Shown here: piece after piece, positions 9,653 through 51,498 of the stretch
Layout of the letters: each line of letters starts with the position of its first letter
How positions within the stretch are numbered: position 1 is the first letter of the stretch
Source: Eledone cirrhosa
Taxonomy: Eukaryota
Direction of reading: 5' to 3'
DNA length: 64,000 nt
NCBI GenBank assembly: GCA_964016885.1
Contig: OZ024759.1
Coordinates: 29,946,001 to 30,010,000 of the forward strand
Notes under the pieces: generated by a model
What the model was told of the DNA's origin: nothing
The model's database searches: none
Seen by the model: the letters and a program-made list of their open reading frames with translations, nothing else
Made by a program: the position numbers and the translations under genes

Positions 9653-9841
9653 GAAAATGTTCAAGACCCCGACGGCAGAGCTGAAGCCGTTTCGATGGCT
9701 ATTTCTGAAATAGCCGTCGAAACGGCTTGAGCTTTGCCGTCGGGGTCTTGAACATTTTCCTATTACTCACTCTACTACCCAAAGTATTGAGTACTCTGGT
9801 GCGTTATGGTCCACCTGGTTCCTTACCACACTTCCTTCGTT
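9653..9841 (+). mobile_element. (TA)n-flanked palindromic module, family B (3' half of a hammerhead)
   Basis: Arms 9653-9705 and 9707-9759; contains CGAAAC-GGC..GCC-GTC; five copies in the window. Confidence 0.75.
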
Positions 9842-10016
9842 ATATATATATATATATATATATATATATAAATACAATATCGGAGAAAGCTTTTTAGCGA
9901 TACTCCGGCCAAATTCCAACTCACTCAACAAATATTAGGAAATAAGTGATTATATTCCTAATTAAGCGTTCGGGGTGCTAACTAAATGTATTGCGTGGAA
10001 AATTGGCTGTATTATT

Positions 10017-10173
10017 TCAGGAGACATATCGAATATATAGAGATATATTCGATATGTCTTGTTTCATTATAGGATTCCTACAATTTGGGTGAAATTATAC
10101 CAATTTATGTAGAAGCTTGTATACCATCAATAGATATATATTCAAGTGGGCTCCTATAATTCATCAGTGAGTG
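10017..10173 (-). ncRNA. Degenerate hammerhead-like motif
   Basis: Minus strand CTGATGA-ATTATAGGA...TCCTATAAT-GAAAC followed by a long hairpin; cleavage triplet is not canonical. Confidence 0.45.
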
Positions 10174-10320
10174 CCCCAATAATACTAAAATTGATAATCT
10201 AATCAACATCAGTATTTAGCGATAATCAACATCAGTGCCTGAGGTATCTGTCAGATATATATATATATATATATATATATATATATATATATATATATAT
10301 ATATATATATATATATATAT

Positions 10321-10410
10321 ATTTATTAAAATAACAGATTAAAGTTTAAACAAAGAATCGCTGCTTTCACCCTTAACGGATTTTAGTCTTCAAATTTATT
10401 ATCATTACTA
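10321..10410. mobile_element. Short (TA)n-flanked element (related copies at 20658-20728 and 34861-34931)
   Basis: Shared atttattaaaataacagattaaagttt...gattttagtcttca..tttatta. Confidence 0.65.
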
Positions 10411-10456
10411 TATATATATATATATATATATATATATATATATATATATATATATA

Positions 10457-11367
10457 TACTGTTGTTGTTCTTTTATGTTTATTATTGGTGATGTGCATCT
10501 GAACACACAACTTACAGCTATTAACGCCTCTTGACATTTCAGTTAAGTTTATCAACAAAGTCAAGCGGCAGGATTGTTTTATTTCAGATATTGAATAAAA
10601 CGTGATTTTTTCTCCACACGCATGTAACTCGCTATATAATTCATATTTAAAAACGGTAAAGGAAGGGAAAGCATTGGCCGACCCTCGTATATCGAGGCTA
10701 CAAACTAAAACGTTCATTGCGAGATTTTGTAGCTTGCATTGCTAGAAAAACTGTTTCAATGCATAAATATATATAAAGAGAGAGAGAGAGAGAGAGAGAG
10801 AGAGAGAGAGAGAGAGAGAGAGAGAGAGAGAGAGAGAGAGAGAGAGAAAGAGGGGGAGAGAGATACAAACATATATATAAATATAAATAAAATTAGAATT
10901 TTATTCTCGCCCTAGCATACTTGTTGCATACTTACAGTTATATATATATATATATTTATATATATGTTTGTATCTCTCTCCCCCTTTTTCTCTCTCTCTG
11001 TGCCTCTCTCTCTCTCTCTCTCTCTCTCTCTCTCTCTCTCTCTCTCTTTATATATATTTATGCATTAAAACAGTTTTTCTAGCAATGCAAGCTACAAAAT
11101 CTCGCAATGAACGTTTTAGTTTGTAGCCTCGATATACGAGGGTCGGCCAATGCTTTCCCTTCCTTTACCGTTTTTAAATATGAATTATATAGCGAGTTAC
11201 ATGCGTGTGGAGAAAAAATCACGTTTTATTCAATATCTGAAATAAAACAATCCTGCCGCTTGACTTTGTTGATAAACTTAACTGAAATGTCAAGAGGCGT
11301 TAATAGCTGTAAGTTGTGTGTTCAGATGCACATCACCAATAATAAACATAAAAGAACAACAACAGTA
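10457..11367. repeat. Large near-perfect inverted repeat (~420-bp arms, ~65-bp spacer)
   Basis: 10457-10885 is the reverse complement of ~10951-11367; the same ORF translation appears on both strands in the track. Confidence 0.95.
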
Positions 11368-11559
11368 GTTCTTTGAATGATATCACATCATTTATCGTAC
11401 AAAAGGAACCATCTTAGAAACCTGTCTAAAGTCTGTTTCAAGCTTGGACGCTCATCAGAACGATGCTTATCCTGCTTTCCATGGCAAGAAGCGACTAAGA
11501 GTACAAGAACAAGACCCCTCCCCCTCCCCTGGATTGGATGCCAGTCCATCGCAAGGTTA

Positions 11560-11820
11560 AAGACTGTCCCAAACTCCCAGAGGTTCATCAGAACGGTGCT
11601 TATCCTGATTTCCATGACGTTAAGCGACTGAGAGTACAAGACTTCCCACTGGTCAGGACGCTAGTCCATCGCATGGTTAAACTCCCAGCTATTGCTGGTA
11701 CTCATTTTTAGTTGAGTATACTGGAACAACATGAAACGAAGTGTTTTCTTCATGAACACATCACACAACCCAGTCCAGGAATTAAATCTACAATTTCATA
11801 GTCATAAGTCCAACACCCTT
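11560..11820 (-). mobile_element. Meta-like SINE
   Basis: ctggaacaacatgaaacgaagtgttttcttcatgaacac core and a tRNA-like head in reverse. Confidence 0.75.
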
Positions 11821-48550: not shown

Positions 48551-49251
48551 TTCAACATTTACAAAATTCTGCTCTCCTAATTCTTCCGTTTTTGTCTCTC
48601 ACCATCTCTCTCTCTCTCTCACCAGCTCTCTCTCTCTGTCTCTGTCTGTCACCCTCTCTCTCTGTCTTTCATCACCTCTCTCTCTCTCTCTCACCATCTC
48701 TCTTTTATCTCTCTCTCACACATCCTCTTCTCACTCCCTCCCTCCTTTTTTCTCACTCTCTCTTTTTTTTCCATCTCACCCCTCTCCTCTTCCTCTCTAC
48801 TCTCTCTTACACTTACCCCGTTTTCTCTCTCTCACACTCTCCCTCACACACACTGTCTCTCCTCTCTCTGCCTCTCACACACACCCTCTCTCTCTTCCTC
48901 CTCTCTCTCACACACTCTCTCTTCCTCCTCTCTCTCACGCACACTCTCTCCCATCTCTCTTTTCCTCTACTATCTACCTGTTATTCTTCCTTCTAACACC
49001 TCCCACAGGCCTACACCCCCTCCTTTCATTTATTCATGACTCAAACAATCAGTTATAACTCTATATTCTTTCCATAGGGAAAGCCAAAAGAATGTTTTTG
49101 TTTTGTTTTATGAAAACACAAATTCTTTATATTTTTACTGAATTACTGAATAATATAGGGGAAATATATTAGCTGAGGGTAAATGTCATGTTTTCTCAAG
49201 TGCATGGGTTGCTATCCGTGTCACTACCAAGATCTTTATTTATTTAAATAA

Positions 49252-50035
49252 ACTGGAGTCAGCGCCATAATAACAACCACAGACACAGATGAGCTGGCCA
49301 CATCTGGAGACTCAGTGACAACAGACGGGCTGGCCACATCTGGAGACTCAGTGACAACAAATGGGCTGGCCACATCTGGAGACTCAGTGCTAACAAATGG
49401 GTTTGCCATATCTAGCGACTCAATGACAACAGATAGGTTGGCCACATCTGGAGACTCAGTGACAACAAATGGGCTGGCCACACCTGGAGACTCAGTGACA
49501 ACAGATTGGTTGGCCACATCTGGAGACTCAGTGATAACAGATGAACTGGCCACATATCGTGACTCAGTGACAACAGATGAACTGGCCACATCTCGTGACT
49601 CAGTGACAACAGATGAGTTGGTCACATCTGGAGACTCAGTGACAACAGATGAGCTGGTTACATCTGGAGACTCAGTGAATACAGATGGGATGTCCACATC
49701 TGGAGACTCAGTGACAACAGATGTGCTGGCTACATCTCGAGACTCAGTGACAACAGATGTGCTGGCTATATCTCGCGACTCAGTGACAACAGATGTGCTG
49801 GTCACATCTGGAGACTCAGTGACAACAGATGGGGGATCAGGTGGACGATCAGTGACAACAGATGGACGATCAGAGTGACAGAGTGGACACTAAGAAAATG
49901 GACAAGATCAAAAGGATTTCCAAGTACAAGATGGAGGGACGACCCCACAAACCATCCGGGACTCCCATGGCCAAGACTGGCAAGGGACAGAGGTCGATAG
50001 AAGAAGTCTAGGGAGGGGATCCTCCTCCGTGAGTG
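49252..50035 (+). mobile_element. RTE-clade LINE 3' fragment
   Basis: Encodes WAGHIWRLSDNRW...RVTEWTLRKWTRSKGFPSTRWRDD, typical of the RTE ORF2 C-terminus. Confidence 0.75.
49285..49865. repeat. 36-bp minisatellite, ~16 copies
   Basis: tgggctggccacatctggagactcagtgacaacaga. Confidence 0.95.
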
Positions 50036-50659
50036 ATTTCAAGACCCTGGATCAAGAAGTTATTTTCTTTAAATATATTTCACAGGCACACAGACACACA
50101 ACCATGACGATTAACAAACTAAACACACATTTATCAGTAACAGTGAAGGCAAGAGCTCCTGTTGGAGTCGTAGGAGCAACATAGTGACATATGGTGTGAA
50201 TTGCGCTTTCAATATCTGGCGGAGACTATTATTCTCCAGGTCTGAATACCACGATTTCTGAGAGAGAGAGAGAGAGAGGGAGAGAGAGAGAGAGAGAGAG
50301 AGAGAGAGAGAGAGAGAGAGAGAGAGAGAATGCCCCAAAGCATTCTAACCGACATTCTAACGACTGTCATTTCACGCCTTAATCAAAAACATATACTAAC
50401 ACCAATAAATATATTAATTTCAAATTATTATAATTCCAAGTCTTCATATAATGATATCCTCGTACATATATATACATATATATATATATATATATATATA
50501 TATATATATATATATATGCAAAAGTCTTATTTAAAATTGTTGGGTTACAACAAGTAAATATTTTATAACCGATATAAAGCACTCGACAAGTTTTTGGAGT
50601 AGATATACGATATTAAACAAATGGAAACTATAATTATTTATAAAACTGTTTATATATTG

Positions 50660-50725
50660 TATTTTATCTGACGAAGGCATGCCATATTTTTAATATGGTA
50701 ACCCTGAAATATGTATAATGAAATA
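50660..50725 (+). ncRNA. Type I hammerhead motif, family C
   Basis: TATTTTAT-CTGACGA-AGG..CCATAT..ATATGG..CCT-GAAA-TATGTATA-ATGAAATA within module 50518-50770. Confidence 0.7.
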
Positions 50726-50913
50726 AATATGGTTTTATAAATATAGTTTCCATTTGTTTAATATCGTATGTATATATATATATATATATATGTGTACATG
50801 TGTGTGTGTGTGTGCGTGTGTGTATATAGTTACTAATCATGTCCACTTATCGTTTACAGTCTCCATAACCTAAACCTTTCATCAATATTGACTTAACATT
50901 ATATTTCCAGATT

Positions 50914-51003
50914 GGCGGTGGATTGGCAGTATCGGCAGAGGGTCGGACGCCATGCTTTCCAGCACTGGGTATTTGCTGGCCTTGTGCCTAAAGTAGAAAT
51001 AAT
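50914..51003 (+). mobile_element. Internally deleted Nin/Deu-like SINE with TSD
   Basis: Head joined directly to tail; attatatttcca on both sides. Confidence 0.75.
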
Positions 51004-51317
51004 TATATTTCCACATTCTGTTTCTCAACATTTAATGTCAATAAAATCACAATCACATATAAACCTACTCTCTCTACAATATTGGATTGTAATTGAGGAA
51101 TATTGTTAAGAATACTCAGACACATACGCCGAAATCATAGATATATGTATGTATATGTCTACACACATATATATATATATATGAAAAATATGGGGAGAAG
51201 AATACTGCATGGTTGCACATGGATTACATGTTATAAAATGAGTCCCTCATCAGTGATTTGCCAACGATCATTGGTATTTCATCGCATTAAAAATCATGTA
51301 TATATATATATATATAT

Positions 51318-51498
51318 GACGAAGGAAATGTGGGAAGGAACCAGATGGACCATAACGCCAAAAGTACTCAATACTTAGGGTAGTAGAGTGGGTAATAGGA
51401 ACAAGTATGACCCCGACGGCAGAGCTCAAGCCGTTTCGACCAGAATTAGCAGTCGAAACGGCTTGAGCTTTGCCTTCGGGGTCATACTTGTTCCTATA
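51318..51498 (-). mobile_element. Family B palindromic module
   Basis: Homologous to 9653-9841. Confidence 0.8.

Follow-up and report, generated by a model that had tools for sequence, protein, structure and literature searches.

Short head-to-head palindromes with one-sided tails in an octopus genome as probable Penelope-like (PLE) insertions

How a sequence resembling half of a ribozyme comes to be mirrored on both strands, repeatedly and at a different depth each time, is the question raised by five palindromes in the 64-kb stretch of Eledone cirrhosa DNA analysed here (hereafter the window). An initial annotation had described these copies, which we call family B, as palindromes that turn at differing depths and lack the CTGANGA half of a hammerhead. 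The palindromic arms, the differing fold centres and the missing half are borne out in all five, but the copies are not pure palindromes: a tail of about 78 nt (67 nt in B3, with a deletion), which that description overlooked, stands on one side only of each. The five confirmed copies have a mean column identity of 83% in alignment, and both ends of every insertion lie in (TA)n. B1 (9653-9840, + strand) comprises a palindrome at 9653-9759 with a 1-nt centre and a tail at about 9764-9840, with (TA)n on both flanks. B2 (23575-23769, - strand) has its tail at 23575-23651 and its palindrome at 23652-23769, the tail arm being deeper by 6 nt, and in B3 (23802-23979, + strand) a palindrome at 23802-23913 is followed by a tail that reaches 23979 with an 11-nt deletion, the tail arm being 5 nt deeper; one TA run is common to B2 and B3. 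The palindrome of B4 (27202-27410, + strand) spans 27202-27333 and its tail 27334-27410; its centre, at 27267-27268, is the deepest of the B copies, GAAA stands at 27291, and the cleavage-site triplet of its tail arm is mutated to GCC. In B5 (51319-51497, - strand), with the tail at 51319-51394 and the palindrome at 51395-51497, it is the tail-less arm that is deeper, by 11 nt. The arms measure about 43-65 nt each, the tail-less arm ends at TTCCTAT adjoining (TA)n, and the turn-back points fall 8-22 nt upstream of GAAAC in five of five copies. The differing depth of the centres is reflected in TTTC-to-GAAA spacings of 25, 32, 25, 46 and 17 letters in B1 to B5, respectively. The fold predicted for B4 reaches -129.9 kcal/mol (z -20), which none of 200 shuffles equalled.

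For the GAAAC-stem-GTC unit in these arms, the most likely identity is a type I hammerhead reduced to its 3' half, as the initial annotation had it. The motif alone is close to chance, with 66 matches in the window against 31 per shuffle; the identification stands on the location of the unit, which is that of the whole hammerheads in neighbouring families A, C and F, and on a palindromic loop III hexamer like that of family A. A descriptor scan of the window returned seven whole hammerheads in these three families against 0.06 per shuffle, using a tuned descriptor that permits a mismatch at the base of stem II and admits two one-letter core variants; an initial descriptor without that mismatch missed families A and F. 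The core of one of the seven (34469) is a variant. In Rfam searches, the A4, F2 and B2 stretches matched no hammerhead, and the best 150 of 283 matches listed for the window included no hammerhead family; the miRNA matches there are generic hairpins below gathering scores. In family B, stem III is 5 bp long with a palindromic loop and the family-consensus cleavage triplet is GTC. The longer motif first quoted for the family, GTC-GAAAC...GGGGTC, is its consensus in reads and is exact in 3 of the 10 arms, the other seven being one or two letters off. The read consensus is GCCGTCGGGGTC, with T at 27312 and G at 27314 in more than 90%; in the palindromic copies the mirror arm stands upstream of GTCGAAAC. 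Neither CTGANGA nor its U3-A8 and G3-C8 variants occur on either strand of the five copies, and GACCCC, the stem I 5' strand sought beside a core, is present in B only as the mirror of GGGGTC, with no core after it. The hairpin earlier taken for a long stem II is produced by the inversion itself and is hence no evidence for one; it is the stem II inserts of 26-31 nt in families C and F that make a long stem II plausible for B. The parent of family B probably carries a whole type I hammerhead, although none was seen, and by analogy with the neighbouring families a CTGANGA-bearing parent is likely. The copies themselves, truncated and self-paired in the predicted folds, would not be working ribozymes and, if transcribed, would form long double-stranded hairpins.

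The plan of family B recurs in five further families in the window (A, C, D, E and F), and a one-sided tail with TA contact is found in 9 of 13 non-microsatellite palindromes, a count that includes B3 as scored by eye after an indel halted the script. In family A, A1 (5420-5609, - strand) is a palindrome with a tail of about 75 nt and a whole type I hammerhead (core at 5547, - strand), A2 (21625-21822, - strand) a palindrome with a tail of about 74 nt, and A4 (53676-53817, + strand) a whole hammerhead (core at 53689) plus tail; in A3 (34714-34847, + strand) the inverted arm is joined directly to the tail. C1 (20138-20341, no strand assigned) is a palindrome with a whole hammerhead per strand and a stem II insert of 31 nt. 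The tail-less arm of C2 (50519-50769, - strand) contains a whole hammerhead (core at 50668, + strand) and its tail arm is about 95 nt shorter; in C4 (63141-63248, - strand) the inverted arm is joined into the middle of the tail, and there is no palindrome. C5 (20886-21122, - strand) consists of a tail and a palindrome that turns upstream of GAAA without CTGANGA, and E (21346-21558, + strand) has a GAAAT-GCGC-ATA half within its palindrome and a tail of about 86 nt. The last two correspond to the palindromes at 21040-21110 and 21345-21475 that had been assigned to unrelated families; both are real and both carry tails, but the first is a member of family C and the tail of the second matches that of family C better than any of 1000 shuffles. 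F (29664-29800, - strand) is a palindrome with a tail of about 73 nt and a tail-less arm deeper by 20 nt, and its relative F2 (46236-46335, - strand) has a whole hammerhead with a 13-bp stem II and its core at 46321. Similarity between the A and B tails is marginal (22-73 of 1000 shuffles). An ACTC...GAGT hairpin at the tail starts, common to families, is visible as a motif; its folding support is mixed and it was set aside.

Element D (54320-56228, - strand) shows the same plan on a larger scale, as a 5'-truncated PLE. A tail-less inverted arm of 299 nt with 3 differences (55930-56228) abuts (TA)n and is followed by the end of a GIY-YIG-coding ORF (about 55929-55387; a near-certain atlas assignment), a 3' UTR, the second arm (54451-54749) and a tail of about 131 nt (54320-54450). 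The GIY-YIG domain is C-terminal, with a CX2-5CxxC-like linker read by eye. Relatives of 690-759 aa in the HMMER library match D at their C-terminus, with RT-type YRDD motifs before it (by eye); Pfam found no RT in the seven long relatives, and a word-based search for longer proteins related to D returned none where the HMMER library did. No canonical hammerhead core lies within 1.4 kb upstream of the GAAAC of D. Assignment of D to Naiad was dropped, since the ORF stops right after the endonuclease, and D is not the parent of family B.

We consider it very probable, by analogy, that the B copies are very short insertions of a PLE 3' pLTR into (TA)n, derived from an element with a C-terminal GIY-YIG endonuclease, an assignment that rests on shared architecture, no autonomous parent or ORF having been linked to B. 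The literature on PLEs (PMC3846280, PMC8557442, PMC4209133, PMC11167929) already describes inverted ends in head-to-head arrangement, a tail on a single side, insertion at TA targets and hammerheads on opposite strands. EN+ PLEs (Adineta vaga Pen2a, Drosophila Penelope, Neptune/Nematis; PMC3846280, PMC8557442) resemble B in having a head-to-head inverted, 5'-truncated copy with a junction palindrome, a tail at one end and an AT-rich or (TA)n target, and have in common with D the C-terminal GIY-YIG and CX2-5CxxC-like linker. They differ in tail length (30-40 nt as published, 73-131 nt here), and the B copies are only 180-210 nt long, lack an ORF and have turn-back points that crowd at the hammerhead. 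The minimal type I hammerheads of PLEs (PMC4209133) match in terminal-repeat location, palindromic loop III, the C before GAAA and a larger helix II, and close opposite-strand pairs, 100-700 bp apart, were already noted there; B, in contrast, has the 3' half only, a 5-bp stem III, and halves less than 50 nt apart that are mutually paired. Non-LTR retrozymes (PMC7229834; bioRxiv 10.64898/2026.07.22.740005) likewise consist of short type I hammerhead repeats without coding capacity, for which an origin from PLE pLTRs has been argued, but form head-to-tail tandems with whole ribozymes and circular RNA, whereas B is head-to-head, solitary and coreless. On these comparisons family B would be a high-copy new member of a known PLE insertion type, not a MITE. 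Pattern scans for B gave no match in viral contigs, metagenome contigs or prokaryote genomes.

How PLEs form inverted ends and one-sided tails has been named as an open question (PMC8557442), and the account that we favor for family B, which as a whole we find reasonably probable, is twin priming. The PLE protein would first cut both strands in (TA)n, the target suggested by the flanks. Reverse transcription would then be primed by both DNA ends, from the outer end of the tail in one case and from the inner site TTCCTAT in the other, in keeping with the fixed outer ends of both arms seen in the window copies. Both copies would mostly stop within the folded hammerhead region, at most about 20 nt before GAAAC is passed on its upstream side; the clustering of stops is observed, and the hammerhead fold would be its cause. 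Finally, the two 3' ends would be united in head-to-head orientation, through annealing or a template switch onto the other copy, a step for which we incline slightly toward acceptance. Twin priming with stops near GAAAC would yield a fixed outer edge, a single tail, a centre that is uneven in either direction and loss of the CTGANGA half. The tail-less arm is deeper in 5 of 14 elements (A3, B5, C2, C4 and F) and the tail arm in four (A1, B2, B3 and D), with neither assigned in the remaining five; all 14 elements can be accounted for by two start sites, one used by each target end, although a later central deletion at the palindrome could produce identical uneven centres. Parts of this scheme have precedent in vitro in Poseidon of Anolis carolinensis, where both strands are cut and extended from two starts that bound the tail, and ribozyme cleavage is dispensable (PMC11167929); Poseidon belongs to a different clade with a shorter tail, and inverted repeats are not derived from the two starts in the accessible portion of that paper. 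In L1 twin priming (Ostertag and Kazazian 2001, as summarized in PMC2246262), both break ends prime and a 5' inversion results, a pattern shared by A3 and C4, whose parts overlap little or not at all; compared with that summary, the second start here is fixed, the copies mostly overlap to give palindromes, and there is no poly(A). A broader reading, which we offer as tentative, is that PLE inverted repeats in general arise when a dimer of the protein uses two fixed starts, spaced by the length of one tail, to extend the two target ends, and the resulting copies are joined at the folded hammerhead, which serves as the stop, that octopus mini-insertions of this kind number in the many thousands, and that B may by now be spreading as a hairpin without a ribozyme. 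Were it true, the origin of PLE inverted repeats and tails would be answered, and a large natural data set would be available for testing.

Fold-back self-priming, proposed for PLEs in 2013 from the junction palindromes of rotifer elements (PMC3846280) and suggested for this locus as a general mechanism, would instead have one tail-primed cDNA stall in the ribozyme and copy itself, with centres later deleted in favor of the tail-less arm. It predicts the 4-6-nt loops with about 1 nt of microhomology found in the tail arms of B2, B3 and A1, and private variants common to both arms of a copy are in its favor, as they are in that of twin priming (4 differences against at least 8 in B1, 1 in B2, 2 against at least 5 in B5); in neither B3 nor B4 does the partner stand alone as the most similar arm. 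Perfect palindromes also tend to lose their centres. However, the tail-less arm in 5 of 14 elements has sequence absent from the tail arm, which self-copying cannot produce unless a second event, a later deletion, is added. Fold-back further leaves unexplained why copying halts at a fixed point, the tail boundary, in every family; the A3 junction lies only a few nt from that boundary, and the C4 junction inside the tail. We regard it as rather unlikely.

A less probable alternative is that B has no remaining CTGANGA source, its palindromic copies behaving as a hairpin SINE that lacks a ribozyme and is transcribed and then re-inserted by a PLE protein; no B copy would in that case reach past the deepest centre. 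Read data, from which runs X5-X20 with their small shares are excluded, lend this some support: between 27282-27297 and 27258-27273 the summed depth of contigs drops from 2.3-2.6 million to 0.08-0.24 million, a loss that also fits twin priming and is partly influenced by short contigs and subfamily divergence, the share of contigs continuing unlike the stretch is 0.00 in read run X1, and many read palindrome centres gather at the A-run/T-run at 27266-27269. Insertion without hammerhead cleavage in vitro (PMC11167929) is also consistent with it, and it is compatible with the head-to-head joining step of twin priming. Against it, one subfamily in reads has at least 38 nt of upstream sequence (loose parts median 71-74 nt, 700-752 reads), which may be the flank of one or few loci, families A, C and F retain whole hammerheads, and the sequence upstream of the consensus copies is obscured by the shortness of the contigs and by AATT cutting in the RAD library. 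No CTGANGA occurs upstream of GAAA in the 22 nt available in B4 or the 38 nt of the read subfamily, among the best 24 of 676 loose ends listed. CTAATAC, near the expected core position in a subfamily loose end, was rejected (4 of 7 letters, mixed consensus with agreement 0.65, no stem I match), and sharp RAD read ends at 27255 and 27280, both AATT sites, were taken as library cuts. In favor of twin priming, the reads contain further joints from a deep tail-less arm to 27327 and 27372 (4 of 12 rows listed); loose read ends at 27333 and 27400-27403 continue into (TA)n, and neighboring B copies have (TA)n between them both in reads and in the window (B2/B3).

A TIR-type MITE or Helitron-type fold-back element targeting TA, the first of which the initial annotation had named as the case that would overturn its reading, would account for long inverted repeats in a TA context and for an internal length that varies as in internally deleted MITEs. 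It is largely refuted already by the conserved tail that all five copies carry beyond the inverted repeat, at a single side, and that ends in (TA)n in reads as well (112 contigs), and neighbors of the same plan carry whole hammerheads and the end of a PLE endonuclease ORF; we consider it highly improbable. Least credible is cleavage of the half ribozymes in trans by intact element RNA, for although PLE hammerheads are thought to act as dimers (PMC4209133) and B has a palindromic loop III, the half pairs with its own antisense arm in whole-copy transcripts, with a predicted cost of 36-53 kcal/mol to open it in 10 of 10 cases on either strand, the exact motif is present in only 3 of 10 arms, and no GACCCC-then-core donor strand was found in the window.

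For ribozyme biology the find is ordinary, the copies being truncated and self-paired. Their value lies elsewhere: copies of 200 nt capture both priming sites and the junction within one short read, so that a genome-wide count of which arm is deeper could tell fold-back and twin priming apart without experiments at the bench. Through them the octopus genome also gains many near-perfect hairpins of 50-60 bp. B2 and B3 adjoin an exon of a receptor guanylate cyclase and probably lie in an intron of that gene, a location that makes them a possible source of double-stranded RNA, which could enter editing or small-RNA pathways.

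The five family B copies, 9653-9840 (+), 23575-23769 (-), 23802-23979 (+), 27202-27410 (+) and 51319-51497 (-) (B1 to B5), lie at all five places named by the initial annotation. TTTC and GAAA are separated by 17-46 letters, the palindrome centre differs in each copy, and the fold of B4 is much more stable than those of 200 shuffles (z -20). The quoted motif is exact in three of the ten arms and one or two letters off in the others, GCCGTCGGGGTC is kept in the read-derived consensus, and neither CTGANGA nor a variant core occurs on either strand of the five copies. Every copy also carries, on one side only, a conserved tail of ~78 nt that had been overlooked. 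This tail terminates in CGT and the outer edge of the tail-less arm is TTCCTAT, each abutting (TA)n in the copies and in loose read ends. A scan of the window gave 13 non-microsatellite palindromes. Eight of them abut (TA)n at one end, with a gap of 73-86 nt before (TA)n at the other, and B3 joins them as a ninth if an indel is tolerated. Families A, C, E and F are built to the same plan. The tails of A to F all begin with an ACTC...GAGT motif, as at 27338-27363 (GCTC...GAGC in F), which may be a signal common to the inner start sites, with mixed support from folding. Family B is abundant in reads: 17,425 contigs from run X1 match B4, as do 22,938 of the 12.5 million reads in X21, figures that give no copy number. 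Loose ends before 27214 and 27327 reveal a divergent subfamily in which GGGGTCC and TTCCTA flank another segment; it is common in reads and absent from the window.

Element D (54320-56228 (-)) has the same plan on a larger scale, with an inverted arm of 299 nt, a tail of 131 nt and an ORF end between them; its arms differ at only 3 of 299 positions, marking it as young. The ORF end is a GIY-YIG endonuclease, and in the three longest relatives of the D protein (690-759 aa) the match sits at the C-terminus and is preceded by a region that, from its YRDD and DKT motifs, we read by eye as a Penelope-like element (PLE) reverse transcriptase; Pfam named no reverse transcriptase in any of seven relatives. 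On these sequence features, the simplest reading of D, which is not the parent of B, is a PLE that is truncated at its 5' end and carries a C-terminal endonuclease. PMC3846280 describes PLE terminal repeats inverted head to head, with palindromes at the junctions and a tail on one side only, and proposes self-priming. In PMC8557442, truncated copies are inverted, tails measure 30-40 bp and (TA)n is a target; the paper calls the origin of the inverted copies and tails open. Hammerheads close together on opposite strands appear in the text of PMC4209133, and Penelope is among the expanded coleoid repeats in that of PMC8967140. Retrozymes, as described in PMC7229834 and bioRxiv 10.64898/2026.07.22.740005, are head-to-tail, unlike family B. 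The literature searched, with Repbase and most subscription papers outside its scope, held no description of octopus mini-elements of this type, though the supplements of PMC8557442 and PMC4209133 may list octopus families.

Two routes to these inversions can be told apart by counting junctions in one assembly, and the junctions favour twin priming over the hairpin-primed fold-back proposed initially. Under twin priming, each end of the cut target would prime a separate cDNA, one starting at the tail end, the other at an inner site, and the two cDNAs would then be joined, with the hammerhead perhaps acting as a stop for copying. In fold-back, a single tail-primed cDNA copies itself, so that extra central sequence is predicted only on the tail-bearing arm. 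Among the 14 elements with a tail and an inverted part (C1, C3, A4 and F2 lack a tail or a full inverted arm), scored partly by eye, the tail arm is deeper in four (A1, B2, B3, D); contrary to that prediction, the tail-less arm is deeper in five (A3, B5, C2, C4, F), the remaining five (A2, B1, B4, C5, E) being undecided. The inverted arm meets the tail at its boundary in A3 and joins inside the tail in C4, leaving no arm to fold back on. The same polarity appears in 4 of the 12 read joint rows listed (of 62); these rows record three different junctions, which lead to 27327 and 27372. Palindromes can later lose sequence at their centres, which could give uneven centres under fold-back; the fixed outer edge would stay unexplained, and we regard this route as unlikely. 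With twin priming, both the tail-less excess and the fixed edge would arise because both target ends prime. Private variants common to both arms in B1, B2 and B5, less clear in B3 and B4, fit either model. In PMC11167929, a PLE protein in purified form cut both target strands and extended them, with two start sites marking the limits of the tail, and L1 inversions are explained by twin priming, as summarised in PMC2246262; none of the literature searched described PLEs as using twin priming.

In the initial reading of the palindromes as mirrored 3' half hammerheads, the fold-back origin is weakened and the hammerhead half is likely. The 3' half motif by itself is weak evidence, with 66 matches in the window versus 31 per shuffle, and no Rfam hammerhead was among the matches listed for the window or in three short stretches. 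Family context carries more weight. With a tuned type I descriptor, seven whole hammerheads were recovered from the window, every one in family A, C or F (0.06 per shuffle, 50 shuffles), in the region of the arm where the motif lies in B. Families A and B each have a palindromic hexamer in loop III (GAGCTC in B), a trait listed for PLE hammerheads in the text of PMC4209133. Family C shows the whole path from cored to core-less copies: C1-C3 have the core and a stem II insert of 26-31 nt, while in C5 and the related element E, both without a core, the turn lies upstream of GAAA. Given the whole hammerheads at the matching place, the C series and the 13-bp stem II of F2, we think it probable that the B parent carries a core. 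Against this count the marginal similarity of the A and B tails (22-73 of 1000 shuffles) and the 1.4 kb upstream of D's GAAAC, where no canonical core was found. The long stem II initially presumed for B does not follow, the cited hairpin being the inversion itself and uninformative about stem II. F2 (46236-46335 (-)) is a whole type I hammerhead whose perfect stem II and 7-bp stem I are unusually long for the PLE motif.

Summed contig depth over B4 is 2.3-2.6 million across 27282-27297 but 0.08-0.24 million across 27258-27273, a drop inflated to some degree by short contigs and subfamily divergence; the turn-back of most B copies therefore appears to lie no more than about 20 nt from GTCGAAAC. 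None of the loose read ends listed at B4 (24 of 676) contains CTGANGA. One starting GATCCGAAC, supported by 700 reads in one RAD run and 752 in another with an agreement of 0.65, takes the upstream sequence to 38 nt with no core, the AATT cut of the RAD library inside the region hiding the rest. The suggestion that half ribozymes are cleaved in trans fares poorly: they pair with their own mirror in transcripts of either strand, and exposing the bases a partner needs costs 36-53 kcal/mol in all ten cases. Only a transcript starting at the palindrome centre would escape this pairing.

The surrounding sequence is animal DNA rich in microsatellites. An exon at ~24124-24450 (-), with an ANF_receptor domain, is 91% identical to a Gyc76C-like receptor guanylate cyclase of Octopus bimaculoides, placing the host in or near the octopuses; B2 and B3, 140-550 nt away, are probably intronic. 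A DDE_3 (Tc1/mariner-type) transposase remnant lies at 30683-31444 (+) (E 6.5e-08). At 10457-11367, a large palindrome (439-nt arms, 33-nt centre) abuts (TA)n on its left and may be another PLE-type inversion, with no hammerhead motif noted. Inverted repeats of 119 nt at 31759-32111 (115-nt spacer, (TA)n at both ends, no tail) are MITE-like or resemble a tail-less PLE. A 381-nt repeat pair, 98% identical, lies in opposite orientation at 15479-15859 and 51616-51996, and three near-identical ~2.5-kb trinucleotide-rich units at 57163-62578, identical even in their unique stretches, represent a recent tandem duplication or an assembly artefact.
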